Under the pieces are notes generated by a model. The model worked only from the letters and a program-made list of their open reading frames with translations. It had not been told where the DNA came from and made no database searches. A stretch of DNA of 64,000 nt from Lama guanicoe (Eukaryota). A program made the translations under genes and the position numbers. Shown piece after piece: positions 18,575 through 51,864 of the stretch; within the stretch, counting starts at the first letter, position 1, and each line of letters opens with the position of its first letter. Where the stretch lies: NCBI GenBank assembly GCA_013239625.1, contig MU053917.1, positions 20,170 to 84,169 on the forward strand, written 5' to 3'.

Positions 18575-18681
18575 GGAGCATGACCTCGGCAGCTTCGCCT
18601 ATCGTATTAAAATGGGACCCCAAACGTTTGGAAATCCGGACGCTGACCGTGGAGAGGCTCTTGGAGCTGCTTGTCACACAG
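18575..18681 (+). pseudogene. CTNNA2: Alpha-N-catenin first coding exon copy; ATG at 18580, MTSAASPIVLKWDPKRLEIRTLTVERLLELLVTQ
   Basis: tctctgcag| acceptor, CAG|gtaaga donor, 107 nt. Four differences from recalled CTNNA2 MTSATSPIILKWDPKSLEIRTLTVERLLEPLVTQ (T5A, I9V, S16R, P30L). Confidence 0.92.
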
Positions 18682-19324
18682 GTAAGAGCTCCTTTGAAAC
18701 GCTTTGTGACATGTGTGTTTCTGCTGGGATTATATCATGAGTTTCCAGGGATCTTAGAAACCCTGAAGAGTGAGTAAATCCCGCTATAACGCTGAGCACT
18801 GAGGATGCGTTCCCGCCTGAGCTGTGGACAGTTTTTTTTCCGCCCAGTGAGGTTTGGAGTGCCTTTGAGGAAGACTCTTCATGTGACTTTTGAGATTAAG
18901 TTGAGGAGGTAATTAAAGGGGGGCTTTGGTGAAGGGCGCTCTCATTTGCAGTAATGGATTCGCAGTCTAAATAAACCGTCCTGCCTTACTTTCAGATGCT
19001 AATGCAGTCAGGAGGAACTGCCCTGAGGATTTAAGGGCAAAGTGTTTTTATTGAGTTACTTTTTTCTTTGGTTTACAAGGGGAAATTCATCATTTTGAAA
19101 TGATGGAAGGTTCCACTTTGATGTTGTCACAGTTGTCACATTTCCGCAAGACGACTGTTAGCAGAGAAACACTCTTAGGATTTTTAAAGTTGTAAAACCT
19201 AATTTTTGCATCTTGTGAAGCATGCTCTTTGCTGTGTTAAGTAAGAATTTCATGGAATGTGAAAGTTCAGGATTTTCCATGGCGTATGTATAGAGATGTA
19301 TGATGTCAAGTTAAGTAGGGGGCA

Positions 19325-19803
19325 CCGAAGTTGGTTTCTTCCTGCTGCTGTAGCAAATTACCATAAGCGTAGTGGCTGGAAGCCTCCCCGATTTATTACC
19401 TCGCGGTTCTAGAGGTCAGGACTCCTGACGTCAGGGTGTTGGCAGAGGTGTGCTCGTTTTGGAGGCTTTCGCAGAAAATCCTTTTTTTTTTTTTTCACCT
19501 TTTCCAAATTCTAAAGGCTGCTCCCTTTTCGGCCCCTTCCTCCAGGTTGGAAGCCAGCTGTGTGGCGTCCTCAGATCTCTCTCTGACTCTGCGCTCTGCT
19601 TCTGCCCTCGCATCACCCTCCCTCCCTCTTATAAGGACCCTTAGGATTACATTGCGCCCACTCGGATACTTGAGAATAATCTGACCTCAAGAGCCGTGAC
19701 CAGATCACATCTGAAGAGGCTCTTCTGGCATTTAAGGGGACATATTGAGTTTCCAGGAATTAGAACATGCACATCTTTGGGGGTCGTTGTTCAGCTCGCC
19801 ATA
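19325..19803 (-). mobile_element. MLT1 (ERVL-MaLR) solo LTR
   Basis: gctgctgtagcaaattaccataa ... gttctagaggtcag ... cttataaggacccttaggattacatt ... atcacatctg ... catctttgggg are MLT1 hallmarks. Confidence 0.85.
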
Positions 19804-19989
19804 GTCCCCCCTCCGGCCACCCTCCCCTACAGTTCACGTCCTTGCTACACAAAACACATTCACTACGTCTCTAGAGCCTCAGTAGACTCAGCCCATTACA
19901 GTGTCATCTCAAGACCAAAACCCCGCCTGGAATTCATCCGGTTTTAAACTCCAGGTTTGTTTTTTTTTTATCACTTCGGCTATCTGATA

Positions 19990-20612
19990 TCTTTTTTTTT
20001 TCACATTTTTTTCTCTGTGATTTATCATAACATTTTGTGTATATTTCCCTGTGCTATACAGTGTAATCTTGTTTATCTATTCTACAATTTTGAAATCCCA
20101 GTCTATCCCTTCCCACCCTCTACCCCCCTGGTAACCACAAGTCTGTATTCTCTTCCATGAGTCTATTTCTGTTCTGTAATTATGCTTTGTTTTTGTTTGT
20201 TTGTTTGTTTTTGTTTTTGTTTTTTAGATTCCACATATGAGCGATCTCATATGGTATTTTTCTTTCTCTTTCTGGCTTACTTCACTTAGAATGACATTCT
20301 CCAGGAGCATCCATGTTGCTACAAATGGCGTTATGTTGTCGGTTTTTATGGCTGAGTAATATTCCATTGTATAAATATACCACATCTTCTTTATCCAGTC
20401 ACCTGTTGATGGACATTTAGGCTGTTTCCACGTTTTGGCTATTGTAAATAGTGCTGCTATGAACATTGGGGTGCAGGTGTCTTTTTGAAGTAGCGTTCCT
20501 TCTGGATATATGCCCAGGAGCAGGATTCCTGGGTCATATGGTAAGTCTATTCCTAGTCTTTTGAGGAATCTCCATCCTGTTTTCCACAGTGGCTGCACCA
20601 AACTGCATTCCT
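19990..20612 (-). mobile_element. 5'-truncated young LINE-1
   Basis: ORF 20224..20601 is an uninterrupted L1 ORF2 C-terminus; very similar to the copy at 12133-12828. Confidence 0.95.
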
Positions 20613-22035
20613 GTCTTACTCCCAGTAGTCTGTACCTCCCGCTCTCCTACCCCTTTCCTGCCCCTCCCCACCTCTCCCCACTGGTAACCACTGTTCTGTT
20701 CTCTGTATCTGTGAGTCAGGTTCTTCTTTTGTTATATGCGCTACTTGGTTTTTTTTTTAGATTCCACGTATAAGTGATATCATACAGTGTTTGTCTTTCT
20801 CCAACTTATTTCACTTAGCATAATGCCCTCCTTGTTCACCCATGTTGCTGCAAGTGGCAAAATTCCATTCTTCTTCATGGCTGAGTAATATTCCGTTGTG
20901 TATATGCCGCATCTTCTTTATCCCTTCATCTGTTGATGGACACTTACGTTGCTTCCAATGGTAGCAGTAATTCCAGTACTTGGCAATAGTAAATAATGCA
21001 GCTGTGAACATTGATGTGTGTGCATCTTTTCAGATTAGTGTTTTGGGTTTGTTAGAATATTTACCACGGGAGTGGAATTGCTGGATCCTTTGGAAATTCT
21101 GTTTTTAGTTTTGTGAGAAACCTCTGTAGTGTTTTCCACAGTGGCTGCACCAATCCCATAACACGCAACAGTGCACAAGGGTTCCCTTTTCACCACATCC
21201 TCACCAGCATTTGTTATTTGTGGACATTTTGGTGACAGCCATTCTGACAGGTGGAGGTGATACCTCTTTGTGGCTTTGATTTGCATTTCTCTGCTGACTA
21301 ACAATGCAGAGCATCTTCTCGTGTTCCTGTTGACCATCTGCATTTCCTCTGTGGAAAAATGTCTGTTCATTTCTTCTGCCCATTTTTTAATTGGGTTGGT
21401 TTTTTTTAGATATTAAGCTCTATGAGCTGTTTGTATATTTTCGGTATTAATCTCTGACAGGTCATATCGTTTGCAAGTATTTTGTCCCATTCAGTAGTTT
21501 GTTTTTTCCCTTTATTGATGGTTTCCTTTGCTGTGCAAAAGCCTTTAATTTTAATTAGGTCCCATTTGTTATATATTCTGTTTCTATTCCCTTTACTTTA
21601 GGAGATGAATCCAAAAAGATATTGTTGAGATTTATGTCAAAGAGTGTTCTGCCTATGTTTTCCTCTGGGAATTTTATAGTATCCAGTCTTACATTGAGAT
21701 CTTCAATCCACTCGGAGTTTATTTTTGTATGTGGTGGTAGAGAATGTCCTAACGGCAGTCTTGTACAGGCAGCTGTCCAGTTTTCCCAGCACCACTTATT
21801 GAAGAGGCTGTCTTTTCTCCATTGTATAGTCTCACTGCCTTTGTCATAGATTAACTGGCCGTAAGTGCGTGGGTTTGTTTTAGCGCTCTCTACCCTGTTC
21901 CGTTGATCTCTGTGTCTGTCTGTGTGCCAGTCCCTCACTGCTTTGATTACTGTAGCTTTGTAGTGTAGTCTGAGGTCAAAGAATGTGGTTCCTCCAGCTC
22001 CATTCTTCCTTCTCAAGATGGTTTGGGCTATTTCA
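20613..22035 (-). mobile_element. Older LINE-1 fragment (ORF2 3' part and 3' UTR)
   Basis: ORFs 21555..22016 (WRKDSLFNKWCWENW) and 21035..21370 are frameshifted L1 ORF2 pieces. Confidence 0.93.
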
Positions 22036-24459
22036 AATTGAAGTTCGCACAGCGGGAGAGATCCCTCACCGGCTGCAGGTGCTGCACGTGCTGGGGGAAA
22101 TGTACCTACAACCCCAGCACATACGATCGAAAGTAATCACTCACGCGATGTGGCGGGCCAGAGAGCCAGGGTCAGGATTTAACAAGCGTTTGGATCTTTG
22201 TGCTCCCAGGTACACAGCCTGAACTCCTGTTGCTACATTTGAGGAACAGTAGGTGACCCCAGAGAAATGGAACTTGCAGTCACTGAAGGAAGGGCTCCCT
22301 CACAAGCACTCTGTTCCAAAGCTAATCTTTCCTGCTTCAGACCACTCAGGGACGGGGGCCATTCTGGATCTGGGGTGTGACAATCCAGTGGGGCTCAGGG
22401 CTGGACAGGATGGAGGGAAATAGAAGAGCCAGGAACATAAGCAGGTGAGAGCAAACTGCAGCTGTGCAGCCAAGGGTCGGGGGACCTTAGAAGGATGCAG
22501 TTCCAGCCTTTGGGATGTAGTTTTGAAGATTATACATTTTGTATATATTTTTAATCAAAGTAAAGCTTTCCATGAAATACCATTTATGCATACTGCAAGC
22601 ACTACTTTCTGGTAATTTCTCTTTCCTCTGCCTTGCCCTATTGTAATGCAATTTATTCTGTAAAATTTTTAAAGAAGTGTCTGACCTCAAATCATTAAGT
22701 TGATGTGGAAACCCACTAATGGGTCATGACTTGTCATTTAAAAAACTGGAGTCTAGTTTTAACATGTTTATATAATAGTTAAGTAAACAGAACGTAGATC
22801 AACACTGACGGTTGGGGTCTGCTGGAGTGTTTTTAAACAGACGTCAGAGATAACGTATGTGAAGTACTGAGCAAGGGCTGTGACATGCAGTGCAGAGTCG
22901 TTCAGTACTGACACCACCACCATCGAGAAGGTGAACAGAGAGTCCCGGACAGGTGTCCTTGAGGTGACCCCAAAATAGCACATGAGCCTGCTGCTCACAT
23001 CCCACGGCCACGCTTAGTTGCAGGGGACGGTGGGACATGCACTCTGTGTTGGACAGGCACCCTGCTAAACCGTGGGTGCTGTAAGGAAGGAAGGAGGACC
23101 GGAGAAAGGAAGGAAGTCAGCGTTCTCTGCCGAAAGCTCCGGAGGGGTCGGCAGTGAGGAGGCGGCTGGAGAAAGCGGGGGATGGGAGTGAGTGTGCCAG
23201 TGACCCTGAAGCCTGTGGGAGAATAGGGAGAAGCAAACAGACTTTGTAACAAAGTGTCAAAAATGCGGTGAGAGGCATGCACAGAGCACCGAGCCCCGAA
23301 GGCCCCCAGTGAGGGCAATGCAACCCAGACTTGCAGGTAGAATCGGAAAGGCTTCCCATCCGGGTGGAGATCTGAATCGTGAAGTTAGCTACCAGATGAT
23401 AGTTGGGTGGGATGCTCAGGGCAGAGGAAGCATAAAATTCCAAGGCCCTGACATGAGCATGAGCATGGAGTGATTAAGAAACAGAAAGAAGTTCAGTCTG
23501 GCAGGTAGGCGCATGGAGGGCAAGGGGAGACAAGAAATGGGGCTCTGGGAAGTGAGCTGGAGGCAGGTGATGCTTTACTGTACGTTAAGGAGACTAAACT
23601 GTGTCCTCAAGGCAAGAGTTCAGTTAAGGAGATGGATGGATGCATTATTGTAAACCCAGCCTGAATTATCGCTGCCACGCTAGTCCCCGGAGCCAAAGGA
23701 GGAAGGTGCAAAACATGAGAAGTTTCCGCTCCATCCTTGAGAGGAAACCTCATATAAATGTTTCCAGTGTGGCTCAGTGTGATTTTCATATAGCACGATC
23801 TGGCTGCAAAATACTTTCTGTGGGTACTGATAATTGAGTTTCTGTTCTGTGTCTTACCCATTGACTGAACTGGGTTAGGGGTGTACACTGAGAAACAAAT
23901 CAAAGAGTCAGTCTACAGTGAACACAAAATAGAATTCCTCTGCATTATAAACAGGTTGATCAACAGAATGAGAGAGGGAAGTAAGAACCAGAAAGGGAGG
24001 TGTCGTAGACATTTAACAAAACAGCCAGCCGGATGGTGGAAGACACGAACGTGGCAGTGGTGCCTGGTGGTGTCATCCAAGCACTGCCTCGCCGCTTTCC
24101 CACCAAAGCAGCTCAGGGAATCTGGTGGTAAAGCCGCGGGTGGTTGGTAGCAACTTTGACGAGGTTTCTTAAAAATTTCAATTTCAGTTTTAAGACGAAT
24201 TAAATTCTGTAGAACAGATTTATTCTTCTTTTAATAAGGAAAAGAAACTGTCTTTTCCTCTGTTTCTGTTAAATACTGTTCCAAGAGTGTGTCCTGTACT
24301 TCTCACATACTATGGTACTGCACAGTGCGTACCTGTTAATATGGAAATCTGGATTTGAAAAATACCGATCTGGTCAACGTCTAGACTGAGAGGGGGCTAA
24401 GAGACAGTTAAAATTCATGAATGAGCCAGGGGGTCACCTGAAGTGCCACTCCGTTAGTT

Positions 24460-24615
24460 TAATTTGGGAGTCTGAGATTTGCAAATGATAACCACTATAT
24501 ATATATATATATATAGAGAGACTATATTCTATATCTTGTAATAACCTTTAATGAAAAAGAATATTAAAACAAATAGATGTGTGTGTATATATATATATAT
24601 GTATTTATGTATATA
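24460..24615 (+). mobile_element. LINE-1 3' end fragment with (TA)n
   Basis: tttgggagtctgagatttgcaaatgataaccactatat ... tatcttgtaataacctttaatgaaaaagaat. Confidence 0.8.
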
Positions 24616-26034
24616 CCAAGAGAAATGACTGGAGCCTGGACTAGAAACAGCCCTGTCGGCATGAGCAGCATCCTCTCTGCTCACAGACAGGCTTATGTAG
24701 GAATCAGGAGGTTGCTGGGTGAGCACGGAATCGAGAGTTTCAGATGAATGAAGTAGAAGGACCCCCTGCTGGGACAGCAGGATGCCCCAGTTCACTTCAG
24801 ATCCAAGTGTTAAATTTTAGTTTAGCTTTCACATAGTCACCTTGCATCTCTCATGTTCAAGTTTTTAGGGGCCCAGTCACCCTCCAGTGTTTATCGGCCT
24901 GCAGAAGAGGATCTGGGTTAAGAACAGAAATAGTTTCGGTAGTATAGTGTTAAGCAGCAGCAAGAAGCCACTACATGTAATTTGGACCTTTTTTTTTTTT
25001 TTTTGCACTACCAGATGCTTTTTCTTAGCAGCTTTCACTTTTATTTGCACTGGCCAGAGAGAACAGACTGGCCTCTCTCAGGGCTGAACCCACCTTGTGG
25101 TGTTTGCTTTGCGGTACATTTTTCTAACTGGGCATGTCACATGAAAAGCATTTGTAAGTCTGGGTTCCTGGCTGCCATCGTGAAGGCATGCACAGAGGTG
25201 TCTGGGTATCGCAGTGATTCTTCTAATGACTATAACTGAGATGCTAGACAGGATGTAAAGCATCCTTCAGACGACCTGGGAGAACAGTGACAAGTCCCAG
25301 AATGCTAAATAATAGAAGAGAAAATGGCAAGCTTGAAAGGTAGGTGCCCAAATTAGACTTCACCTTACAGTTGTATGTGAAGGTGCAATTCCATTTTCTG
25401 CTAAAGGAGGCACAGCCCAGAGTAGAAGGACGTGAAGTCTGTGTTCTGCTGGAGCTGGAGAGGAGGAGAGGAGCCTCCCCTCAGCCAGAAACCTGGAAGC
25501 CACCTGGAAGCAAGCTCAGTCCACAAAGAGTGAAGCCATCTTGTCTTCGTTAACCTGAGCCTGGGTAGAGGAGAAAAAAAGGTTCCCTTGAAAATCTGAG
25601 TTGGCCTTAAACAGGTTTTGCAACTAGAATTCATGCTATCTGTGCGGTCAAACCCCAGATGGAGAATTTAATGTGAGATAGTCCCAGGATGACAGTGAAC
25701 TCGGTAAGCAATAGGCAGAAACAGGTTTTTTGAAAATACGAAACTTCGCATAAGGAGTAAATAATTTCTAAGATATTTTTCAAGTTATACTTCAAAAAAA
25801 TGATGTGTTTGAGGTAAAAAAAAATTATCAATATATACCACAAGTGAGAGCCAGCAAAATAAACAGAAGACGCAGGAGAGTCACAGCCATAAAAGCTACA
25901 GTTACTGGACTTATCAGACATAAATATAAAAAATAATTTTCTGTGATATGTTTTAAGAGTTAAGAAAGGCTTGAAAAATGTTAGCGATGAAAAAGACATT
26001 AAAAACAGCACAATTTAAAGTGACCCAAATATCT

Positions 26035-26200
26035 ACTATATATACAACAGATGAACAATAAGGTCCGGCTGTATAGCACAAGGAATTATATTCAATATCT
26101 TGTAATAACCTATAATGAAAAAGAATATGAAAAGGAAAATATATATACATATAAACTGAATCACTGTGCCGTATACCAGAAACTAATACAGCATTGTTAA
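26035..26200 (+). mobile_element. LINE-1 3' end fragment
   Basis: aacaataaggtccggctgtatagcacaaggaattatattcaatatcttgtaataacctataatgaaaaagaatatg. Confidence 0.85.
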
Positions 26201-29200
26201 TCACCGTTAGCCCATCTGGGGCATTTTTATAAATTACACGAAGGGCCGGAAGGCTACTTGGAGAGGCACCTTTTTCACTTTGCCCGGGACGTGCTTTGTC
26301 CACCCCGGGACGACTGGCCGTGACTGCCGGCCTGGTGAGGGGGAGGGGAGTTGGATTTCAGTCTCACTTGCACCCCTCCTCCCAGCGCCTTTGTAGAGAC
26401 CATAAGCTGTACGTTGCACGCAGGGGCTCTGAAAAGGCGAGCTGAGAGCCATGATCCGTGTGGCAGGTAAGTGATACGCACTTAGCACAAGTGCTCATAC
26501 AGAAAGGGTGGATATGTGTATGTGGGTGTGTTTGTGTGTCCACGTGTGTTTGTAGAACCGTGTCTCTATGAACCTCTCACCCCACCTCCTTAAGAAGGTG
26601 GAAGGTGTGCTTTGGGAAACTCCTGCATCCTGGTCTGTGTACCCTCTGTGTCGCGTGCCTTGCTGCTGGAAGTGGGGCTTTTGTTACTGCCCAGAGGAAT
26701 TCCTTCAACTCTGCAGCCTCATTCTATGCAGTGTCCTTAGCAGTCGCAAGTCTGGGCCAAACCCGGGCACTCAGACCCGTTCTTCTCCCTCAGCGTCCTC
26801 TCTGACAAGTGCGGGCTCTGACCGCACATGCACCTTGCAGTCCGCCTGGTTCTCCTCCACGCCACAGCAGCCCAGTGTCCCCCACCGAGGTCGTGGGAGT
26901 AGATGCGGTGCTTCGAAGCCCTCCTGACCGGTCAAGAGGGTTTCCGTCTTCACTGGGCCCTGTAGACGGCTTCTCACATTGTTCCAGTGACGCTGAGCTC
27001 CGGGCCCTGCGCCGGGGTTTCTGCTCCAAACACACGGTCCTCCCTCGAGGCATTCGGGAGTTTACTTCCTCAGTGAACATCACTGGGTGTCAAGTCCCGG
27101 GCTGGCGTCCTAGTGTCTGACTTTTCCTGGACATCCTGTGTAGTTCCTCACAACAGACAGATAGGGTGAAGATAAGAAATTACATTTAAATTCCAGAAAC
27201 CATATCGCCAGCTCTGTCCTGACCTCACAGTTAGCGATGTACAGACCTTTCTCTCCTGTGCAGCTTTGCAGTGATATAGTATCAAAAAACCTCAGACGCC
27301 GGTTGCCGTGGTAGTGCGCACCGCCCGTTTGCAGGTCGAGAGGCTGTCCAGGGAGCTGACACGCTGCCGCTGCGCCCTGACCGGGGGCTTACTTGATGCG
27401 TCCTGCTGGTTTCTGTGGGTCACGCTTGTCCCAGCAGCTGGCACTGCACTGCAGAAGCTGGGACAAGTGTTCCCCACGCCGGGCTTCGCCTCCTGATCGT
27501 GCCCTGTTGACGAGCCCCGCCCTCGAAGTACGTACGACCTTCCGTGGGGTTATTTTTCTCTCCACCTGATTAATATGGTTTTGCCCTTTCTTTAATGTTG
27601 AGCAGGAACTTTATTTCTGTTTTTATGTTATTCAGTTTCTCCCTTGATGTGTTTATAAGCTGTGTGCTCCGGTGTCTCAGTTTCCACACCCTGTTCAGCT
27701 ATTTTAAATGTCTTAAAACTTTTAATCTTTGCTCACATTAACATTCACAAAGGTTAAAAAATCAAAGAACATAAAATGCTTTAAGAAACAAATTCATCCA
27801 TTTTTTGTATGCCTGTGTACTGTACTAATTTCAGAATATGTGACTTCAGTGTGATTTTACACGTGTAGATATCTTAAGGATAATAAGAATAGTTTTGCAA
27901 AGAATAAGAAAGTGTATCTTCAGAAAATCATAGTGTTTTTGAAAACAGGCATCCGCTGCCCATCATTTCGGTGGTAACTTTTGTAAATCAGTATTTATGG
28001 AATTCATCTTAATCAAATGTCCTTACATAGGAAGACTGCTGCTTGACGTCAGTCCTCCTCTGTAAGAGACGGCAGGACAGGTTTAGAAATTATGGCAGCC
28101 TCCCTGGCCAGAGGCAGTCACGTGCTACTTAACATTGGTCAAATGGTCTTTCTTTTTTCAAACTGAGTGAAGATGGCGAGAAAGTCCTTGATATTCTTGA
28201 CCTGTTACAGTTTTAAATGTTTAGTCTGAGGATTTCCATTTCAGTCAGGCAGCTAGAGTGGAATAAAATAGAACAGCAAGAAGAATCATGTTTCCTTCAC
28301 TGGCTCTTTCAAGTTCAAGCAGGAGCCTTTAATTTACCACGTGGGCTGGTGAAGGGCCATCTTTGTCTTGAATCAAGAAGGTGTGGACCCCAGGGAAGGT
28401 GGCACCTCTTACTTTTGAACCTGGCACAGGCCGAGTCCTCATAGTTAATCAAAAGCCATTTTATCTGAAGATGAAGAATTTGAACAAAAAGTTACAACAT
28501 CATGCGTCTTAAGGTTATTACCAGAAGAGGCAGAGGTGAAGAGGAGACGGTTATGTAATTTAATAACTATGTAAAGAATATGAGCCTATGGAAGGCGTTA
28601 TACCAGGGACTAAGGGCCGTGGAAAGTCGCCAGACTCCCCTGAGTTTGGCTCTTCCTGTCGGTAAAATGTGGGTGACATGCAGGTCTTACAGGGTGGCTG
28701 GAGGGATGAGGAGTAATGCATTAAATATCCTTGGCACTCCAAACCCTAAAAGGTCACCGTGACTGTTGGAGATGTTTCCCCAGTGTTTAAATCATCTAGG
28801 TCGTCATGCAGACTAATAAATGTGAACAGGAGAGGAAAAAATAATAATAATAATAGTAAAAAAAATGGATGTAGCTAAGGAGTTTGCAGTTTTTTGCAGG
28901 CACTGGGGTCTCGTTGAAGCTTCAGCGCAGGAGTGACTGCCACGCTGTTGCCAGAGCGCAGCTGCCTTGGGACTAGCTTCGGGGGCAGAAACAAGAGCTA
29001 GGCGGGCAGGCTGGAAGGACTGCGATTGCTGTGCTCTTCCGGGGCAGAAGTGGCCGTGGAAGCTTGAACAGGATGGAGGGGAGGGTGGAGTTGTGGAGGA
29101 GGACTGAAGGAAGGAAGGAAGGATGCAAGAGGTAGTAAGGTCATGGAGTCAAAGGCATTACTGCTTCCGCGTTTTCAGGGCCAAGGAACAGAAGACACCA

Positions 29201-30344
29201 GCTCAAGGGCGGGTGGGCATTCAGGTCCAGGGAGAAAACAAGCAAGCTCTGCTGTGGACAGACCAAGTTTGAAGTTCGGTAACAGCACCCACTGGCTGTT
29301 GACACTGGACAGGTCATTTTCTCCAGGGAGGAGCTTTGTCGGGAAAGAATTCCTGTCTTTATCTCTCATGAAGTCGGGAGACCTGTGCACAGCGAGAGAG
29401 AAGGCGTGTTTAGGTCACTTTGCAGAGCTGGGTAGACGGCAGGGACTCTGAGTCAGGCAGCTTCTTCCTGAGAAGCTCTGAGAGGTTGTGTTTCTCACAA
29501 GGGATGAGGCCTCGCGGTTGCTGTGTCCCGCGAAGAAACAAGAGACAAATTTCCTTAATGGTGATACTGCTTATCTTGAGATACTGTTACTTCTGATGTG
29601 CTTACCCTGAGCTACTGGGTCAAACCACTTTCAGAAAATACTCAAAACCTACTTTGAGAACCTGTCTAGGAACACGTGAAGGTCAGGTCCTTCTGTATGT
29701 AGGAAACACTATTATATTTGTTTTACTTATCATTATGTTATATTAGAGAGAAGGTGGGAATGGATGCGTTTGTCAGTGGAGCATGTTTTGAGTGGTGAGA
29801 GATACCGTGAACGCAGTGAGAACATTTAATTCAAACATCCTTTCATGATCTCCGTTGCTTTTTCTGAGATGCCACAGAGGTGTCTGCTTGTGAGTTAATT
29901 TCAGCCACAGCCCATCAGCTTGTAAACACGACAACACAAAGAGAAGACAGGATACGTGTGTGTGTCTGTGTTTGTGTTGATGCACATGCGAGTCTGTCTG
30001 TGGAGACACATGCATTCTCACTCAGTCATGTCCACAGCCTTCGTTTCAGAGAACTGTCTGGGGAGACTTAAAAGCCCACATCAGTGGTCCCATTAGTTTT
30101 GTTTTCCTTTTCGGTTGGAGCTGTCGTGTATCCACAGTCTTCATGGGCTGGATGTACCCTGAGATATTCTTAGCAAAGGGTACCTTTTGTTTCAAACACA
30201 GTCATACACACAGCTTCCAGCTGAACAGAAGGGAAGAAAGATTTCTTGGGGTGTTAGTCAAATACTGTCATTTTTGCCTTGTTATTTTAAAGCCTAGACA
30301 TAGTTTCCAAACAGCATTGAGCAAAAGTAGACTCTCAGGACACT

Positions 30345-30812
30345 CACTTGCGTTCTCAGCAACGTGGACGGACCTGGAGAATGTCATTCGAAGTGAAGTC
30401 AGCCAGAAAGAGAAAGAAAGCTACCATGCGATACCACTCATATGTGGAACCTTAAAAGAAAAAAGAAAAAAGAGGACCCTAAGGAACTCATCTACAAAAT
30501 GGAAACAGACTCGCAGGCAATAAACCATATTATGGTTACCTGGGGAAAGGGGGCAGGAAGGGATAAAGTTGGGAGTTTGAGATTTACAAATGTTAGCCAC
30601 TATATATAAAAATAGATTAAAAAAAAAGTTCCTGCTGTAGAGCACAGGGAACTGTGTTCAATATCTTGTAATAACCTGTAATGAAAAAGAATATGAGAAC
30701 GAATATGTGTATGTATGTATGTGCATGACTGGGGCGCCGTGCTGTACACCAGAAATTGGTACAGTGTAACTAATTATACCTCAATTTAAAATAAATAAAT
30801 TAGGAAAAAAAG
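30345..30812 (+). mobile_element. 5'-truncated LINE-1 3' end with A-rich tail
   Basis: ATWTDLENVIRSEVSQKEK ORF2 end, followed by 3' UTR and A-rich tail. Confidence 0.92.
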
Positions 30813-31395: not shown

Positions 31396-31724
31396 AGGCT
31401 GGGGAACCTTTTCTTTAAAGGGCCGGAGAGTCAGTCCTTCGGGCCCTGGGGACCCCAGGGTATTCAGATTCATAACGGCTACCGAGTTACGCCTTTGTAG
31501 TGAGAAGGCAGCCTCAGACAACACGGAGACAGACGTGTCTGTGTTCCCACAAAGTGTATTTATGGAAAATTAATTCGAATTTTATAGATTTTCATGTATC
31601 ATGAGTCATGATCTGTTCGATTTTTAAAACCACTGAAAGATGTGAGTATCAATCTTCGTTTGCGGGCCCTGAGAGACAAGTGGTGGGTCGGACGTGGCTC
31701 GTGAACCACAGCCTGCCAACCCCA
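31396..31724 (+). mobile_element. MER58B-like hAT-Charlie MITE
   Basis: ggctggggaaccttttctttaaagggccggagagt ... cacagcctgccaaccccag, with the AT-rich internal part recalled for MER58B. Confidence 0.7.
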
Positions 31725-39682: not shown

Positions 39683-39704
39683 ACACACACACACACACAC
39701 ACAC
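39683..39704. repeat. (CA)n microsatellite
   Basis: Pure AC run read directly. Confidence 0.95.
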
Positions 39705-41419
39705 ATTTGTGTGTTCTCCCTCGTTTTCATACACACAGCTCAAGAGCATATGAACAGTGCTCGAAAAGGAGTGGGATTTGTCGTGCAGTCTGGTGATTTC
39801 AGGTTGAACTTTGGGGATGTCCTCAGTGTCTACAGGGAGGGGAGGAAGCAGCGTGAGAAGCAAGCACGCTTTGTCCTTCTCCATCTGAAGTCTGGTAACG
39901 CGAGCTTTATAGTCGGTTGGCTTCAGTGTTTATAGTGCCAACGAGGCCAGTCTTCTCAGATTCGATCCCTAGGCCAGCTAAGTGTATTGATTTTTCTTAA
40001 GAGCGAGTCAGGCATGAGAAGAAACATTGTGAGAGCAGTAGACTGTGTGGCTTTCTGTCCTTTATATATGGAGCACATTTTATTACTCTTACCCCCTGTG
40101 CTAATGTTAAAGTACCACGGAAAAAATCAGATTTAACCAATGGTGCCTAGAACAAGAAGAAAAATAGGTAAGACTTGAGACCACATATTATGTTTTGAGC
40201 TTGTAATTTTGAGTTCAAAAGAAATTTCCTTAGCTATAAAAAGTGAGTGGGTTTTAAATAGTCTAATCAGGCAATCACCTGTTGCTCACCTGTGTTTACA
40301 AAGAGCAAAGGGAGAACCAGAAGTGTTCTGTACGTGTTGCTTAATTAGTCCGATTAAACACCTGCCTGAGACATCCTGGCTCAGTAGGTCCCCCTTCTCA
40401 GAGTCACTAGCACATGGCTAAAAATACAATTTTTCCAAATGTAAATATTTAACTTTAAAAATTGTTGAACTATTCTCCATACTGTGTATGAAAAAAATGT
40501 ATATGAATTATGCATTGCTTACAACACACAAAAAAATAGACTCTGCAATTAAGCTCATTTAATGGTGCTATTTACAGGAATATTCAGTTCACAAGCTTAT
40601 AAAAACATAATGGGAAAAAAAGTAAGGTGCATGTCTAAAGAAAATTATGAGGAATTTCACAAAATACTTGGGTGAAAAACTGGAGTGGGCCCCCAGGGGG
40701 CAGCAGGACCCCCATAAGCCCCAGAGTGCTTTGGGTAAAGCACCCAAATTATTCTGAAAATCCCCAAAAGGAGGTTTCAGATACTCCTTTGTTAACCCCT
40801 CTGAATTTTGACCTCAGAAAATTCATTGCTAAATTAATACTCTCCCAATTCTGTAGTGTATCTGAGTGGATACAGAGAACAGATTTCAGATCTTTATGCC
40901 CCACATTGACCATCATGAACCACAAGTCAAGAACTGAATTTCGTTAAGATACGGAATGTAGGAGTTTGAAGTCACTTAGGATAATTTTTAAGTTTGAGCT
41001 GAGGAAAAGAAAAAGAGATTCATTGTCCTGAGAATCTCACAGGTAGTGAGTGGGTGGGGCTCATTATTGTTCTTGGGACCCCTCCTTTGTTGCAGAGCTG
41101 AGTGCTTTAAGCTGTCAGATTTAAACTTCTCAACATCCCTGTGAGGTATATGACATTGCCCTCGTTTTTCAAAAGAGGAAGCCAAGTCTCTGATGCAGTC
41201 ATTTCTCACCCAGATGAGACCTGGCAGCTCCACAGCCTGCATCCTCTCCACTGCCACATGCCACTGCCTTTTACTGACGACTTGCTCCGCAGTGTTGCTT
41301 CGGTCCCGATCCTCTACACCCATTCTGCAGTTTCAGAAATGCTCATCCACTTTTTTTAAAATCCATGGTTTTTATTTTGCCAGTATCTCCACAACATCAT
41401 GTGTAACTTTTTAAACTTC

Positions 41420-42147
41420 TGTTTTTTTAAATTGAAGTATAGTTAGTTACCTATGTGTCAATTTCTGGTGCACAGCATAATGTCCCAGTCATGCATATAC
41501 ATACACACATATATTCCTTTTCATAACAGGTTATTATAAGATGTTGAGTATAGTTCCCTGTGCTATACAGAATAAATTTGCTTTTTATCTATTTTTATAT
41601 ATAGTGGCTAACGTTTGCAAATCTCAAACTCCCAAATTTATCCCTTCCCACCTCCTTTCCCTAGGTAACCGTAAGATTGTTTACTATGTCTGCAAGTCTA
41701 TCTGTTTTGTAAATGAGTTCATTAGTGTCCTGTTTTTCTTTTTTCAGATTCCACATATGAATGCTATCATATGGTATATTTCTTTCTCTTTCTGCCTTAT
41801 TTCACTTAGAATGATAATTTCCAGGACCATCCATGTTGCTGCAAATGGCATTAGTTTACTCTTTTTTGTGGCTGAGTAGTATTCCATTGTATAAGTATAC
41901 CACACTTCTTTATCCAGGCATCTGTCACTGGACATTTAGGTTGCTTCTGTGTCTTGGCTATTGTAAATAGTGCTGCTGTGAACACTGGGGTGCATGTGTC
42001 TTTTGAAATTAGACTTCCCTCTGGATATATGCCCAGGAGTGGGATTGCTGGATCATATGGTAAGTCTGTTTTTAGTTTTTTAAGGAATTTCCATACTGTT
42101 TTCCATAACGGCTGCACCAAACTACATTCCCAGCAGCAGTGTAGGAG
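41420..42147 (-). mobile_element. 5'-truncated LINE-1
   Basis: ORF 41851..42120 [32 protein letters not shown]; 3' UTR and T tail. Confidence 0.95.
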
Positions 42148-45100
42148 ACTTTTTCAAGAGAAATGATACTTGGAATTAGAAAATGAGATGCTTCCTTTTT
42201 TGGTGAGTTGTCCAAATACATGTTCACGAGCAGAGTCTAGACAGGGTAATTACAATCTGCCCATTTCCCCCTTTACAATCCCCTAGAACCTTGAGCCTTT
42301 GAGAAGTGATGCTTAAGGAGTGCAGCTAGACGACACGCCTGTGCACTCAAGTGTAGGGCTGGCATTCTGTCCACAACGAGATGACCCTGCAGTGAAATGT
42401 CAATGTGGTCTTTATTCAAGCCATTGGCATTTTACCAGACGTTTGGAGCTTAATGAGAGGATAATAATGTACTCTTACATATCAAGATTCAAGAAATGTC
42501 AGTGGATATAATGATGATCTCTTTGGGGGAAAAAAGAGGGGCCGTTTGGGTATGTCACGCACACTGTAGTGAAACTGTGTAGCCACATCCATTTTCTGCC
42601 CATAAAGTACAGTTGGTTTTGGTCTTAGAAATTTGTACTGTGTGTAAACTAAGGCAGGTGTGTGTTGAGCATTATCTTAGGGGAAGAAACTGCCAGACAA
42701 AGTAACACTTGAAATCTCCGTGCTTGGTGGTGTTATCTGAGTCAGAGAGAGAACACTTTGTTTCCTGATTCAAGCAGACACCTGTGGTGTGTGTAAGGAG
42801 CTGGGCGTATCTGGGGGACATTTATTGTTTAGGGGTCTGTTAAGGAAGGAATAAGGTGGCATCATCCATCGTGATTAATTTGGGTTCCAGAGCAGAGACT
42901 ACTCCACAAAAGAATGAGGTTTTGGTGGGGTTCTTCTGCTTGTTGTTTTGGAAGAAACTTTCTAAATATGGTGGTGGAGAAGCGTAGTTTTTACCCCAAA
43001 CTCAGTAGGTTTTCTGTTAAATCCCCCCTGTGGCTTGCAACTATCATCCCCTTTACGTGAGACGAGTAATGTCAGTTCCGTTCCAAGAAGTGCTAATGGC
43101 TTCTATGGTTTTCTTTTTGGTGTTAATTCCAGCTATGACTTTTTTGAGTTCACCAAGAATCTAGAGTTCCTAATTAGTACTTCCAAATGATGGCTTGAAA
43201 TTTACATCTCAAATATACTATAGTTAGCAGCTGGAATTTGACAGTATTTTAAAAATATGTGTTATATGAAAAAAACCGTGAAAGTCAAAGTAGCGTGGTA
43301 AAAATTGCAGCCTGTGTCTTCTGTGCGTGTGTGTTGAGTGTGCACTTGTGCACACGCAAGGGGGGAGGGGAGGGAGGAGGGAAAGTAAGGACACACTTAA
43401 TGGCTGCTGCAAAGTAATGAGAAAACGAACAAATCGTTTTTATTTCATAAGATAAAGTTTCTATCCCTACGTTCCTGCTGGATTAGAAGTTTCGATCAGC
43501 TCGATCTTTTAGCTAACCTGGCACTGATTGGAACGTATTTTTTACTTATTGCGGTCTCAGATTTGTGTCTCCTCTTTCTTGTAACGGTCTATTTTGTTTC
43601 ATTTTATTTCAGCCTTCGTAAATCCAAAATAGTGACTCGTTAACATAGTTTAGTCATTTTTCAATTGTTAGGGACATTAAAAACAGCATGGGGTTTCCTC
43701 AGATGGGCACTGATGGTCAGAACAATTCAGGGGTTTTAAAGACAGAAATGTTTTCTTACTCACTTAAAGTCCCTGCTTCTAAGCTGTTGCTCCTTCAGTG
43801 AATTCTGCCGTTGCTTCTGTGTCTTAATTTTGAGTATCTTTTCTCATCGCCCTAAGAGTAGACATTGCACGTTGTGCAGATTCTAGGAAAATCTAGTAGG
43901 CTTTTAGCAGATCCTGTAAACAAGTTTATTTCTTGGGATTGTTTGATTTGCTGTGTTCTGTCAAATCTCAGATGCCGTCAATTATAAGATATATATTTAA
44001 GTACCTTTAAGAAAAAAATAAAATTCTATCAAATATACCTTCTTAGTGACACAGGTTGTAGGAGTCATCCTTATTGTTTGCATATGTAGAAGTGTGGGGA
44101 AAAAGTAAATCTTAGAATTGACAGAATATATTTTACTGTCTTCCATAAGAAAAGTTTAGACTTTATTAGACTTCAGGTATATAAAGTACTGGAAGGTTAA
44201 CATGCCTTGAAGGAAAATGATTAAAAAAAAAACACCAAAAACCAAGATGAATGTAAGTATGGATAAGGAGCAAAGACTGAGACTAATTCAGTAATAATAA
44301 TCGTCAAATTGCATGCTTTATAATGGGGACCATATACTTGGGTCAAGCTTTTCTTAATTGAAGTCAGTGTGAAAAAGAATAATTAATTTATTCCACAATT
44401 TAATGCCCATGAAATAAAATCAAACCAGGTTCTAAGGAGAAAAATAAATAAAGCTCCAATATTCTTGGTACTAAAATCATACAAAGATTTGTCTGCATAA
44501 CGTAAAGAATGGTACCTTAGCTGTAACCGCAGGGCGCACACAGCTTCCTAAAACCCTTTGTGGGGCTGCCTCTCCACCGAGGTCACTGGTATCACACGAA
44601 GGCAGGTGGAGACGTTTCCATCAGTGTCCAGTATAATAACGTGTCTCTCTGCTTGTCTGCTTTACATTAGTGTGGTTGGGGTATTATAATCGGTGGAGAG
44701 AGAGTTGGACTGAACGTCCTTCAAGCCAAAGTAAATGTTGTTTCTCTCAGATAAGCTTTTGGGTGGCAGTGAATCTAGACCGTATTCCCTGGAGATTACA
44801 TCAAGTTAAGTCCCTCAAGCTGCTACTTTAACGTGACACAGCTCGCCTGAGCAGGGAGTGGAGAAAATGTTAGTTTAACATCTTCTAAGGGAAACTGAGT
44901 TTCTTCTGAAGAAAAAGTGCCTAAAGAGAAGGGCCCCCTGTTGCGCCTTGGCTTACAGCCACTCTGGAGAGATTCCTGCTGGGAAATAAGTTTGCGTCAC
45001 TTCTGACCTGCAGGATGGATGGTCCAGTGCCCAGTTGTTCTACTCTGTAAATTGCAGCCGCAGAAAGTTTAGCCCAGAAAAAAGAAAGAAAGAAATAGAT

Positions 45101-45204
45101 AGGTATAACTGGCTATTACTGCTCTTGGCCTTAGAAACACCTCAACACCGGTCATAGCATTTCTGCCGTGGGGTTAATTTCTGAAATCTACTTTTTGGTA
45201 TTAT

Positions 45205-45665
45205 GGATCTTCCTTGACTTGCAATGGGGTTGTGTCCCAATAAGGTCATCGTTTCAGCTGAAAATATCGTCGGGGCAAATTCATTTACTGTCACTACCCT
45301 ACTGAACGTCATAGCTTAGTGCCGTCTGCCTTTAATGTGCTCAGAGCAGAGCTTACCGTTGGGCAAATTATGTGGCACAAAGCTGTGAAGTGTCGAAGAG
45401 CTTATTGAATCCTGTGCTGAAAGTGAAAAACGGGGTGGTTGTGCGGGTACAGAACGGTCAAGGTTCCCTTCCTCTCCCCTGCGCTCCCGTCGCTGAGCGG
45501 GGGCTGTGGCCGCCGCTGCCCGGCATCGTGAGAGAGCGCCCTGCCGCGTAGCGCTGACCTGGGAAGCGGTGAGAAATCAGAATTCAGAGTGTGGTTTCTA
45601 CTGAAGGCATGTGGCTTTCTCACCACTGTAAAGTCGGAAAATCAGTTAAGTCGAAGTGTATCTGT
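45205..45665 (+). mobile_element. MER47/Tigger5-family DNA transposon remnant
   Basis: cttgacttgcaatggggttgtgtcccaataa ... tgaaaatatcgt ... catagcttag ... ctgaaagtgaaaaac ... ggtttctactgaa ... gtaaagtcggaaaatc match recalled MER47A/Tigger5. Confidence 0.8.
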
Positions 45666-45761
45666 ATGTTCTTCAAGATAAAGTATTTGGGAAGCATATA
45701 CCAAAGCAACCGAGAGAAGGCTCGCCTTGGACCTCATTGAGCAGGTCAGGGTGAGCCTGCA

Positions 45762-45777
45762 AATAATAATAATAATA

Positions 45778-45819
<42 letters not shown>

Positions 45820-45823
45820 TAAT
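45762..45823. repeat. (AAT)n microsatellite
   Basis: Near-perfect AAT run read directly. Confidence 0.95.
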
Positions 45824-47409
45824 AACAGCAACTTCAACGGCATACGTCATGTATAGGCTCTCTTTACAGCCATACGTAACCAGCACCAGTCCAGGTCTGT
45901 TTCAGATTAAATGACAAAACCTTGTCTTCAGAGCTGAAGAATGCCTGCCTGCAGGACTTGGGCGTCAATGAACATACATCCTGATCTGCACTGTCAGTGT
46001 CAGCCACCTGGGAGGAAATTTCAAAGGCAAAGAGGATAATTCTGATTTCTGCCTTCTGTAAACTGCCAGTGCATGATTAAACGACCGTTTCTTTGTGTTT
46101 TGATTCTCAGTTTTAAAGCTGTGGAAGGATCAGTAACTAGTTCTTACGATGTACTTCTGTTTGTCTAAAACGGGATGTGGAGTTTTGTCTGGGAAGCAAG
46201 ACCAGTTCATAGGAAATGCTGGCGTCATCGTTTCTGCCACACGGAAGTCTTACTTCAGTGACTAGTGAGGTCACGGAAATCTGTGTTATCGCCTCCTTTC
46301 GCTCAGGCACTGGTGTCACCGCGCTGGTCTTATTTCCTCCAAAGTGCACCACATGCGCGTGTCTCAGATGTCATGGAAAGTCCGTACTAGGAAATAATCT
46401 CTCATGGGTTTTCCCACAAGGGGAGCATTTACCTGCTCATGTGTTTTATAAGGAGAAGCACAAGCCGTATCTGTGTTGACCGTGTAACTGCTGGGTGACC
46501 AGTTCGGGTTGTCGAGGAACAATTCAAGGGAGACGTCATTTTGACGCATTGCTTGGCACTTGTTTAACTCGGCCGTTCTTAATACCTGACTGAAGATTTC
46601 TCCTCGAGGCTTCGTGTTATCAAATATATTCCCCTTGGAGCATTTAACTCTTTTCTATCTTAAGTTAGAAGAGTTTTCCTCTTTAAGGAATTCTTAAATT
46701 TATCTGCAGTTGCTCCTGGAATAGAAGAATTTGTTTTTGATCATTTTGTTTTCAAATATTCACCTCACAGTGCTCTTGATTTTTTTTTTCTTTTTTAAGC
46801 TGCAGCAGTAATCAGAGCCCTCTGTTACGTTAGCTGAGTGATTGTGACAAATGAAATGCTTCACAGCCGTGCAACAGTGGGATTCACAAAGGCTTCCTAC
46901 TCACATGTGCCAAGTGCATGAATCTAGCAAAACGGTGCTCAGGGTTATCAATGTTTTAGTTTTTTGCTCTTGGTTCTCCTTTAGTGGCTTCCTGGAGAGC
47001 TCAAATAATGGCTTGATTCATAGCATTCACATGTGTGTACTCTTGCTTCTGCAAGTGCCTCCTGGCTGCCTGGTCTGATAGAGGAGGGTGCCTTTCGACA
47101 ACTTGACCAGTGCATCAGCGGGTTGTTTTTGAGGACACGTGATCTGTGATGGCACCTGAAATAAGAGGAAAAGTTTGCCTTTGGAAAATCACTGCTCTGT
47201 CTCTCTCACTTTCTTTTGCTTCAGCTAGAGTGCTGTTTCTGAAAGTAAATCCATTAACCACGTATGTCCTAGTTCCCTGAGATTGGACGTGAGATGTCCT
47301 GCCAGAGACCTCCCTGGGCAGGAGCCCCGCAAGGTCTACAGATCCGCCTGCTGACAGGCATCTTGGTGATTCTGAGATGCGATGCCGTCTGATGATCGTG
47401 GTCCTAGAA

Positions 47410-47550
47410 TTCGGTGCTTCTCAGATTTTAATGTGCATATGAATTACTTAGGGTTCTCATTAAAATGCAGACTCCCTTTTAGTAGGTCTGGAGTGGGGCC
47501 TGAGAGTCTGCATTTCTGACAAGCCCCAAGTGACAGTGATGTCTCCGAAG
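47410..47550. mobile_element. MER5-family hAT MITE
   Basis: gtgcttctcagattttaatgtgcatatgaattac ... taaaatgcagact ... gtaggtctggagtggggcctgagagtctgcatttctgacaagc. Confidence 0.8.
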
Positions 47551-49761
47551 TGCACCTTCAGTTGCCTGCCCTTTGGGTGAGGCTTAGACAAACTACCCTG
47601 CTGCTGGCTCTGGGCAGATGGGACAGAGTGACCGAGACCAAGGCCTTGGTGCCCTCACTGTTGCTTGTTGTTTTGGAAGAAGTCTTCCCAGTCTGTCAAG
47701 CGTGTGCGTCTGGAAGCAGAGAACTGATCCGGTGGAAGAGACATGGTCAGATAAATTGTCATAAAAGCACTGTAAGAGAAAGAAAGGAGTGAAGTGGCGC
47801 TGGCTGCTGCATTCCCGACCGCCACCGTGCAGGAACGGGGCCCTGCTCCTAGGACATCAGGCGACGAGTCGTCTGCACCAGCCTGTGCCTCACGGGTTTA
47901 CCCTCAGATCCTACCATCACTGTGTCTGAGAACAGTGGTGCCCACCCTCTGGCTGTCACTGAGACTTTCCCATTGGCCGGGGTCCACCAGGACCCTCATT
48001 ATGTCCTGGTCCTAGGACCACGAACCACTTACGCTCTTATCTGTGAGCTACAGAATTTCTTCTTTGATGTGAGGTGGAGACATTGAGGAAATATTTAGGG
48101 GGGACTAGAGAAAACCAAGCATGCTTTTAAGCTAAGGCTGACGGGCCTACAGACAAGGGGCCGTGTTGAAGGTTTAGAGGGAAATTGGCTCGGCTAATGC
48201 CTCTGAATGATGTGGTCAGAAGATCGGGGTGATTTAAAAGGGCGGTGGTAGCAGCATGCCTTTCCTGGTGTAGGAGGGGGGAAGAAAAACATGGGCACAG
48301 AGAGAAGGGAGTTTGACGGTCCTTTTGAAAGCTCCCGGAGTTTAGAGAAGGAAAAGATTGTTACTAAGAGAATTAGCCAGGAGGTGTTTCCCGGACAAAG
48401 GAGAGTTGATGTGACAGATCAGTATGATAAGACAGAAATGACTTGATTCGGGGAACTTATCGGTTACCTTAGAGATCAGTTTAAGAAGTGCTCCAGGAGG
48501 TGTGGAAATGAAAGCGCAATTTCTGAGCAGTGTATGGAAAGAGAAAACGGACACTTTAACACGTGCACTGCTATTTAAAAAAATTTTTGGCAGTGACTAG
48601 TAAGACCTAAACCCCTCAGCTCGGCTCTCAGAGGCCTCAGAGGCTTTGCTCTGCTGCGTCTGTCCGACCTCGTCTCCTATGTCACATCCGAGTTCACCCT
48701 GTTGCTCTTGTCTCTGTGGCTGGAACGTTGTGTTTTCCTCTTTTCTCTGCCGCACAGCAGATGGGCTCACAGATCGTTAGCAAAGGAGAGCGTGTGGGTC
48801 TTGAGTGACGCTCGCCTGGGGTGGCATTTGGTGTGGGGACTGGGGAGAGAGCCTGGATAGGGTAAGGGGAGACGTACCATTCAACCAGGAGTTTCTACAG
48901 AATAACCACCTTTTACAAGTTTGCCAGCGAGCTGCCCTAGGCATTTAAAGGCCTGTAAGCACCGTCTCCCCAGGATGCAGCATCACACCGGTCGTCAGAC
49001 CTGGACCCGGGCAGCCAGCCTTCGCAGCTCACTGGGGTGTCCCTCTGCTGTTAAGACCGTCCTCTGTGTTCTCCCTTGCAGTGGTAATTTTCCTCACGCA
49101 GCAGTCTCTACCTTGTGTGACGGTTATCTCTGATAGTATGAGTGTGTGGTGATAGGATGTTTACAACTGGATTTTTCGCTGGGACTGCTGCTCTGCTAGG
49201 TTTGTACTGTTTAAATCTAATGTTTAGCCACCCAGCTCTTTGCTCCTAGAGTGGTTGTAATAGTTTGTCTTTTAACTCTTCTGCGTTTTCTTGATGCAGT
49301 CACGTTTTCTGCAAGGAATGAAGAATAACTTAGTCTCGACCATTCTAGTGCTTGTATCTTGTCCTTGTCTTTTCTTATCTAACTTGTTGACTCTGTCCTT
49401 CAGCGAAACACTGAATAGCAATGGGGAGGATGAACGATTATTTCCTTATTCAAAACTGATTAAGGCGTGAGCATTAATGGGGCCTCGTAACGCTCCTTCT
49501 GTTCTTCTCTCTCACGTCTCTTTACGTTCCGCCACACGCGGAGCTGAGAGCTCTTCCTAACGGAGGACTGAATTGATTTGCTTCATTTGAAAGTCATCAC
49601 ATGTTTCTTAGGACCTTCCTGGTCATGTCCCATGTTTATTTCTTCCCACATAACTGATAGCTCCTTACCGGCTTGTTATTATGAGCGTTGCCTGAATTGT
49701 GCTCGATAGAGTAATGCGCCGTGAGATAACAGGAAAAGTTGCACTTTGTTTGCCTTGCCAG

Positions 49762-50665
49762 NNNNNNNNNNNNNNNNNNNNNNNNNNNNNNNNNNNNNNN
49801 NNNNNNNNNNNNNNNNNNNNNNNNNNNNNNNNNNNNNNNNNNNNNNNNNNNNNNNNNNNNNNNNNNNNNNNNNNNNNNNNNNNNNNNNNNNNNNNNNNNN
49901 NNNNNNNNNNNNNNNNNNNNNNNNNNNNNNNNNNNNNNNNNNNNNNNNNNNNNNNNNNNNNNNNNNNNNNNNNNNNNNNNNNNNNNNNNNNNNNNNNNNN
50001 NNNNNNNNNNNNNNNNNNNNNNNNNNNNNNNNNNNNNNNNNNNNNNNNNNNNNNNNNNNNNNNNNNNNNNNNNNNNNNNNNNNNNNNNNNNNNNNNNNNN
50101 NNNNNNNNNNNNNNNNNNNNNNNNNNNNNNNNNNNNNNNNNNNNNNNNNNNNNNNNNNNNNNNNNNNNNNNNNNNNNNNNNNNNNNNNNNNNNNNNNNNN
50201 NNNNNNNNNNNNNNNNNNNNNNNNNNNNNNNNNNNNNNNNNNNNNNNNNNNNNNNNNNNNNNNNNNNNNNNNNNNNNNNNNNNNNNNNNNNNNNNNNNNN
50301 NNNNNNNNNNNNNNNNNNNNNNNNNNNNNNNNNNNNNNNNNNNNNNNNNNNNNNNNNNNNNNNNNNNNNNNNNNNNNNNNNNNNNNNNNNNNNNNNNNNN
50401 NNNNNNNNNNNNNNNNNNNNNNNNNNNNNNNNNNNNNNNNNNNNNNNNNNNNNNNNNNNNNNNNNNNNNNNNNNNNNNNNNNNNNNNNNNNNNNNNNNNN
50501 NNNNNNNNNNNNNNNNNNNNNNNNNNNNNNNNNNNNNNNNNNNNNNNNNNNNNNNNNNNNNNNNNNNNNNNNNNNNNNNNNNNNNNNNNNNNNNNNNNNN
50601 NNNNNNNNNNNNNNNNNNNNNNNNNNNNNNNNNNNNNNNNNNNNNNNNNNNNNNNNNNNNNNNNN
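49762..50665. other. Assembly gap (904 N)
   Basis: Run of N. Confidence 1.
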
Positions 50666-51676
50666 GTTCACTGTGACCTTAGTCACTTTGCTTGCTCTCG
50701 GATCTGAAGTAAAGAGCAGAAACTACAGCATTTGGAGCTTTGCTGGGGACTGACTTTCTTGGTAACCTCCAAAAAAACCTTTAGTCTGCTCGCCAGGACG
50801 CGTGCCGGTGACAGTGACCGCAGCCCCCGCGTTCTTATGAAGCGGATTAAAAAATGCAGAGGTGTCGATGGCTCGGTGAACAGAATGTGGAGCCGTGGCG
50901 TTCACTTCCCTTTCAGACTTCTCACTGCCAGAAAATAAAGGTTCAGAAGTACGTAGGAGAGAAGTTCTTTGTAAGATAGTAAAAGCTGTGTTACAAGATT
51001 AAGCAGCTCTAGATACAGAGCAGAAAGAGGTTTGGCAGCTGAGATCTGTATCCAAATTATAATACTTAGTCAAGGAGTGAGAAATTCAATCTGATTTCAG
51101 TTCTCAAAGTTTTAGCTGGTTAACGAAATCCGGGTACTGCGTCATTCAGTCCCTTCAAATCAAATTCACTGTTTTGATTTTATAAGATGGAATTCAGAGA
51201 TAGCAGAAGTCTTCCCGAAGTCCTCGGTGACTGACCCATGAGCAGAGGGCATCAGTGGCCCACCGTGTGTCGACCCCTCGCTCACCTCCGCCCTGACTCT
51301 GAGGCTCAGGATCGGGTACTGGTTCTCCTCACGCAAGGCTCAGAGGCGGTTCCACGTTGTGTTCTGTTGTATCTCCTCCCTGAGGCTGGCTACCCTGACC
51401 AGCACTGCACAGGTCAGTCTGCGAAGGCGCAGCCTCCAGTTGGCTGGAAATTTTGAGCTACTGGCACATCTGGCCTTCGTCCTGATGACCTGAGGTCATC
51501 TGCGTGAGGTGAATAGCAGTTCCTTTGCACGCAAGTCCGTGTCCTTCCACGTCTTCCGGAGGATGAGGCTGTTTGATGTGTGTGTGCAATGTCGTGAGCG
51601 AAGGCTGAGTAAAAATGGCGAGATGACAGTGCTGTTTCTTGGCAGTTAATTTCACAGTTGTCCTTTTATGTTTAAG

Positions 51677-51864
51677 GTGACGACCCTTGTCAACACAAGC
51701 AACAAAGGCCCATCTGGTAAGAAGGGGAGGTCAGAGCCACGTGCTGGCCGCGTCTGTGGAGCAGGCCACTCAGAACTTCCTGGAAAAGGGCAAGCAGATC
51801 GCCAAGGTGAGTCAGGATCTCAAGGAGGAGCTGGTCGCTGCCGTGGAAGACGTGCGCAAGCAAG
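51677..51864 (+). pseudogene. CTNNA2: Alpha-N-catenin second coding exon copy, frameshifted
   Basis: ttttatgtttaag| acceptor, AAG|gtaggc donor. VTTLVNTSNKGPSGKKGRS then a frame change to HVLAASVEQATQNFLEKGKQIAKVSQDLKEELVAAVEDVRKQ. Length 188 nt against the 196 nt implied by the recalled sequence (SGKKKGRSKKAHVL): a 3-nt and a 5-nt loss. Confidence 0.93.

Follow-up and report, generated by a model that had tools for sequence, protein, structure and literature searches.

CTNNA2-like exons in the window

The window (the whole 64,000-nt stretch of the Lama guanicoe assembly that was analysed) carries on its + strand a copy of the first two coding exons of CTNNA2, the gene for alphaN-catenin. The exon 2 copy (18575..18681, the first coding exon) has an AG acceptor, an ATG at 18580 and a GT donor that matches the consensus at 8/9 positions, and its 34 codons differ from mouse alphaN-catenin (PDB 4P9T; E 5e-13) by T5A, I9V, S16R and P30L. 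The canonical residues are present in 6/6 protein-search matches to this exon, where the four changes of the window are absent. The intron between the two copies (18682..51676, +) measures 32,995 nt as assembled and contains repeats that we take to be L1-type. It also contains a scaffold gap of 904 N (49762..50665), so that exons 2 and 3 lie on different contigs, with exon 3 at 1 kb from a contig end, and the link between them rests on scaffolding. Much of the intron retains more CpG than we would expect for methylated mammalian DNA, GC-biased conversion being one conceivable cause; the intronic stretch 36001-40000 has a GC content of 0.54 and a CpG observed/expected (o/e) ratio of 0.75, with no Pfam match in three frames. 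A search of metagenome contigs with a 21-base intron pattern gave 0 matches.

The exon 3 copy (51677..51864, +) retains AG/GT ends and measures 188 nt, instead of the 196 nt needed to encode residues 35-99 of the camelid protein XP_072807663.1 and one further base. One lysine codon (3 nt) is absent, and 4 nt at 51734-51737 stand in place of three codons (5 nt lost), which together account for the net loss of 8 nt. As a consequence, the catenin frame is lost from 51734, after 53 residues (34 from exon 2 and 19 from exon 3), and E76K and E81V lie in the old frame beyond the shift. This pair of changes is absent among the best 120 of 141 protein matches to exon 3. Of 14 long frames of the window compared with Pfam, only that of the exon 3 copy gave a match (Vinculin, E 6e-11), and this exon is closer to alphaN- than to alphaE-catenin (E 4e-19 vs 1e-15). 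No stop interrupts the shifted frame before the exon ends, which gives a 97-residue read-through ORF whose stop at 51866-51868 falls within the intact donor region (51865..51868, +); the hypothetical product would consist of 53 catenin-like and 44 unrelated residues. When residues 101-944 of the camelid protein were compared with the whole window by tblastn, the best E value was 2.6 and no later exon was found. The disabling lesions, as seen in the assembly sequence, are thus the 8-nt net loss and the truncation after exon 3. The initial annotation of this locus had described correct splice sites on both exons across a 33-kb intron, four amino-acid changes in exon 2, an 8-nt net deletion with E-to-K and E-to-V changes in exon 3, and about 53 catenin residues before the frameshift, and each of these features was recovered here.

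An intact CTNNA2 of full length is known from the camelid Vicugna pacos (XP_072807663.1, 944 aa, on an 18.1-Mb contig), and the corresponding UniRef entry has two Camelidae members. Conservation of the changed sites was assessed in the best 120 of 732 longer full-length relatives, of which 117/120 show 0 or 1 differences from the camelid protein over the first 100 residues. T5, S16, P30 and E81 are each conserved in 120/120 and I9 in 119/120 of these sequences, whereas position 76 is E in 107 and D in 13, so that all six replacements of the window copy fall at conserved sites. The copy agrees with canonical alphaN-catenin (XP_072807663.1; mouse PDB 4P9T and 4ONS) in the sequence of exons 2-3 and in the borders and phase of these exons but covers residues 1-100 only and carries the six replacements and the frameshift. 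Alpha-catenins are described as comprising N1, N2, M1-M3 and actin-binding domains (PMC4957052), of which the window copy lacks N2, M and the actin-binding domain. With its frameshift at 51734, and as no exon encoding residues 101-944 was found within the window, the locus does not have the open frame of a functional CTNNA2.

Surroundings of the exon copies

Upstream of exon 2 lies a CpG island (8901..10330, +; GC 0.68, CpG o/e 0.67) that contains a candidate non-coding first exon and is common to Camelus ferus. The donor after 10136 matches the consensus at 8/9 positions, a level reached by 31/4074 GT sites on the + strand, and lies 8.4 kb before exon 2; the stretch 10020-10136 is ATG-free. 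Judged by these sequence features, the island is a possible promoter for the CTNNA2 copy. Further upstream, a U6 snRNA-like copy at 7156-7258 (-), probably a retrocopy, scores 49.6 bits, above the gathering threshold of 44.

Downstream of exon 3, AATAAA signals occur at 54366 and later. A GC-rich, CpG-depleted block (58851..59910, +; GC 0.63, CpG o/e 0.24) is unlike the DNA before it, and the CTNNA2 segment therefore likely ends between 52 and 59 kb. Within this block, 59608-59910 contains an acceptor, a start codon at 59820, a frameshift and a stop; we take it to resemble, in decayed form, the 5' portion of ADGRB1 (BAI1) coding exon 1, presumably cut off by an L1-type piece. A literature motif search, the protein atlas and PDB returned nothing for this ADGRB1 identity. 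A second CpG island (60991..61780, +; GC 0.74, CpG o/e 0.94; donor after 61331) starts ~9.1 kb past exon 3 and carries CCAAT-like and GC boxes as well as GCG repeats, a composition that suggests a promoter-like element. The earlier statement that no further catenin exon precedes another gene's promoter is upheld as regards the exons, while the promoter is here a CpG island that is promoter-like by composition. At 62191-62488, a 48-nt direct repeat (85% alike, copies 250 nt apart) flanks a short L1-type 3' end and is longer than a usual target-site duplication. Tandem Repeats Finder, at periods up to 500, reported 9 short rows, none exceeding 64 nt, and no satellite array.

A collinear block in Camelus

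A protein search with the upstream frame 9147-9284 returned two matches, of which one was genuine, namely EPY79942.1, an automatic gene model on a 5.05-Mb contig of Camelus ferus. The second, a Phytophthora repeat protein, had no matching stretch and no tblastn match and was dropped; Pfam, the protein atlas and PDB gave no known protein for this frame. Pieces of EPY79942.1 match the window from 9.1 to 59.0 kb, over ~50 kb, in the same order and on the same strand. They comprise an upstream piece inside the upstream CpG island (9147-9299, +), two non-coding anchors before exon 2 (11591-11695, +, with 26/30 residues alike over 11591-11680; and 16205-16279, +, with 24/25 residues alike), exon 2 read off-frame, exon 3, and two downstream non-coding anchors (58577-58600, +, with 7/8 residues alike, weak alone at E 5.7; and 58827-58952, +, with 35/41 residues alike over 58830-58952). 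Exon 3 of C. ferus keeps its frame, and N43S is its sole departure from the full-length camelid protein; S43 is found in 3 of the best 120 relatives (one snake, one shark and one toad).

A further camel model, the Camelus bactrianus 'catenin alpha-2-like' protein A0A9W3F780, consists of 107 aa encoded by an ORF that ends in intron 3; its exon 2 is canonical and its exon 3 is identical to that of EPY79942.1. The intron run-on after exon 3 is common to the window and A0A9W3F780, which is 1/278 compared proteins, in keeping with a camelid host, as are the L1 3' ends of the window, which we take to be camelid-like. Both camel models resemble the window in containing exons 2-3 only with intron run-on after exon 3, and EPY79942.1 also in having the flanking pieces in identical order; unlike the window copy, both have an intact frame and a single replacement (N43S), as automatic models. 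The literature search found no study of either model. Both models carry N43S, a change not present in the full-length camelid protein, so that the block seen in camels and the parent locus are likely two different sequences. We infer from the sequences that the camel models represent the same duplicate and not the CTNNA2 parent, taking the second Camelidae member of the UniRef entry to be Camelus and relying also on the downstream anchors; the camel block would then be either an ortholog or a sister copy of the window block. The presence of a collinear C. ferus model from another assembly at ~4% divergence indicates an old block that has been assembled independently in the two species.

Divergence and selection

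The non-catenin pieces of the window and the camel differ at 14/153 residues after trimming of splice edges, and the window-camel divergence amounts to ~4% at the DNA level (interval 2.2-6.8%). It likely reflects the split between Old World and New World camelids, given as 16.3 million years in the source (PMC12127551), which would put the window on the branch opposite to Camelus. Replacements between window and camel affect 7/97 exon codons, a rate similar to that of the non-coding pieces (Fisher P 0.65), which, together with the six replacements, indicates that purifying selection has been lost in the window copy.

Of the seven exon replacements, 6/7 are on the side of the window and one on that of the camel, with none common to both. 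Tested as a binomial, 1 vs 6 gives P 0.125 and, with the two deletions included, 1 vs 8 gives P 0.039; finding at most one camel replacement where 4.4 are expected under neutrality has P 0.064. These values serve as a lead only, because the tests were picked after the data had been seen and assume equal rates in the two lineages. The asymmetry between camel and window is only suggestive, and pure neutrality explains it only moderately well. P30L and E76K are the changes that CpG decay would be expected to give.

Origin and status of the copy

The favoured reading, to which we assign a probability of about 0.8, is that exons 2-3 of the window stem from a genomic duplication of the front of CTNNA2, truncated at the 3' end but with the intron retained, and that this copy is probably a pseudogene in this camelid lineage. 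Segmental duplications are usually defined as stretches of more than 1 kb at more than 90% DNA identity. The partial segmental duplicate proposed by the initial annotation is corroborated by the full-length camelid CTNNA2 on record and by the same 50-kb arrangement in C. ferus. Three hallmarks of an unprocessed pseudogene are found together here, namely a retained exon-intron structure, disabling lesions (in the assembly) and the loss of purifying selection, whereas a processed pseudogene is ruled out by the 33-kb intron with its splice ends. According to this scenario, an incomplete duplication at the DNA level in the camelid ancestor would have copied at least the stretch from exon 2 to approximately exon 3, along with flanking DNA, and the duplicate would have been joined to other sequence in a mosaic block before the split from Camelus; the mosaic reading leans partly on the name ADGRB1, itself tentative. 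The copy would thereby have lost everything after residue 100, and in the lineage of the window it may then have gathered replacements at approximately the flanking rate, plus the frameshift, by neutral decay. Even if transcribed, it would have no catenin function, since its product lacks the beta-catenin-binding and dimerisation region.

An observation that counts against a decayed pseudogene is that all four splice ends are still intact, and it may be asked whether the duplicate is still active here, with the CpG island driving a spliced exon 2-3 transcript that acts as a non-coding RNA or encodes the 97-residue chimeric peptide. The island with its strong donor 8.4 kb upstream and the ATG-free stretch 10020-10136, the splice ends, the shifted frame open to the exon end and the AATAAA from 54366 onward are all compatible with such a transcript, and the human 3'-truncated duplicates examined in the source were all transcribed (PMC6169893). 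We nonetheless regard an active copy as improbable: the replacement rate equals that of the flank, the version of the window is unrecorded among the best 120 and the 6 protein matches, splice sites would be expected to survive by chance at ~2% divergence per lineage, and transcription by itself would not prove function. Two RNA-seq runs of one study contained 0.12 and 0.09 of the sampled words of the exon 3 region, which is not evidence of expression.

The lesions themselves may be questioned, in that the deletions and some of the replacements could have arisen through misassembly, or could be confined to a single allele or a single one of several copies, with the main copy in frame as in camels. 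Of 161 words sampled from the 1.5 kb around exon 3, a fraction of 0.81-0.88 was present in 18 of the 24 listed sequencing runs, these 18 covering four organism labels and eight studies, one possibly that of the source sample; no listed run reached 0.9 of the words. The parent locus alone would be estimated to give 0.02-0.73 of the words, if introns diverged like replacement sites, and the higher fractions therefore indicate that the exon 3 stretch is common, real DNA. They are no confirmation of the deletions, because the lesions touch only ~6% of the sampled words, and it is compatible with an error or allele that the best run stopped at 0.88, that exon 3 lies so near a contig end and that the camel exon 3 is in frame. 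Against this, the six replacements are distributed over two exons on separate contigs, their number matches the neutral rate of the flank, and P30L and E76K would fit CpG decay; an artefactual origin of the lesions is thus considered about as doubtful as an active copy. Least probable of all is that the species has no CTNNA2 locus besides the one in the window, which would then be genuinely broken or wrongly scaffolded. One gap does lie inside the locus and the parent locus was sought only outside this assembly, but a full-length camelid CTNNA2 is on record, C. ferus has the same truncated arrangement with an N43S that the full-length protein does not have, and biallelic loss of CTNNA2 is reported to cause severe cortical malformation in people (PMC7596222).

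A different history is conceivable for the camels, in which an alphaN-catenin mini-gene (exons 2-3, ~107 aa) dating from the camelid ancestor would have been kept in frame under selection in Old World camels and lost here. If so, its product might serve as a shortened partner of, or a decoy for, either beta-catenin or full-length alphaN-catenin. The absence of any replacement common to both lineages and the imbalance of 1 vs 6 replacements plus 2 deletions (P 0.04-0.13) are in its favour; on the other side, the reading frame terminates within the N1 bundle, the camel models were generated automatically, and the same pattern would arise if the lineage of the window mutated faster. We consider a mini-gene unlikely, if somewhat less so than an active copy or an artefact in the window.

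Relation to known truncated duplicates

The genes SRGAP2B/C, ARHGAP11B and NOTCH2NL are described as human 3'-truncated segmental duplicates, which are usually transcribed and sometimes functional (PMC6169893). The window copy resembles them in covering just the 5' portion of a large neural gene, duplicated incompletely as DNA with introns kept and placed beside other sequence, as far as these genes are portrayed in that source. The human set is reported as >99% identical to the parent genes, expressed and in some cases endowed with a working domain (PMC6169893), whereas the window copy is old and frameshifted at residue 54. Unlike duplicates of the SRGAP2C type, it has no intact ORF with an interaction domain but 53 catenin residues only. 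In camels the frame of the copy is kept, but its catenin sequence stops at residue 100, whereas the protease-resistant beta-catenin-binding and dimerisation fragment of alphaE-catenin, a stable fragment, is given as aa 82-287 (PMC4957052).

Within camelids, pseudogene-rich duplicated blocks with fragments of NEK10, FMN2, ATF5 and ABHD17A have been described on alpaca chromosomes 11, 17 and 36 (PMC13751797). These blocks are likewise camelid, contain fragmented, decaying copies of unrelated genes and are attributed in the source to segmental duplication and decay, but they are multi-copy, satellite-mixed and absent or reduced in Camelus (PMC13751797), whereas the window has no satellite array and its collinear block is present in C. 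ferus. The accessible text on the alpaca blocks, including one supplement file, does not name CTNNA2 (PMC13751797), nor is a catenin named in the available part of a camelid copy-number preprint (10.1101/2025.08.28.672513). Judging by titles and abstract openings, the papers found on CTNNA2 in alpaca or camel and on camelid duplications include none that deals with this copy. Camelid genomes commonly contain truncated duplicates of this known kind and, as a pseudogene, the copy is ordinary; new with respect to the initial annotation are the recorded intact camelid CTNNA2, the collinear block in C. ferus and the in-frame camel exon 3.

As a pseudogene, the copy matters chiefly for annotation and variant calling. 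CTNNA2 appears in association and selection scans, and in camelids spurious variants or false calls of 'gene loss' can result from a diverged exon 2-3 copy. The locus further provides one camelid mosaic block dated before the Camelus split, unlike the published alpaca blocks. Should the in-frame camel copy prove to be expressed and constrained, it would constitute a truncated paralog of an adhesion protein with a built-in loss lineage, and the mini-gene, if true, would be a non-primate parallel of SRGAP2C in which the loss lineage is a natural one.
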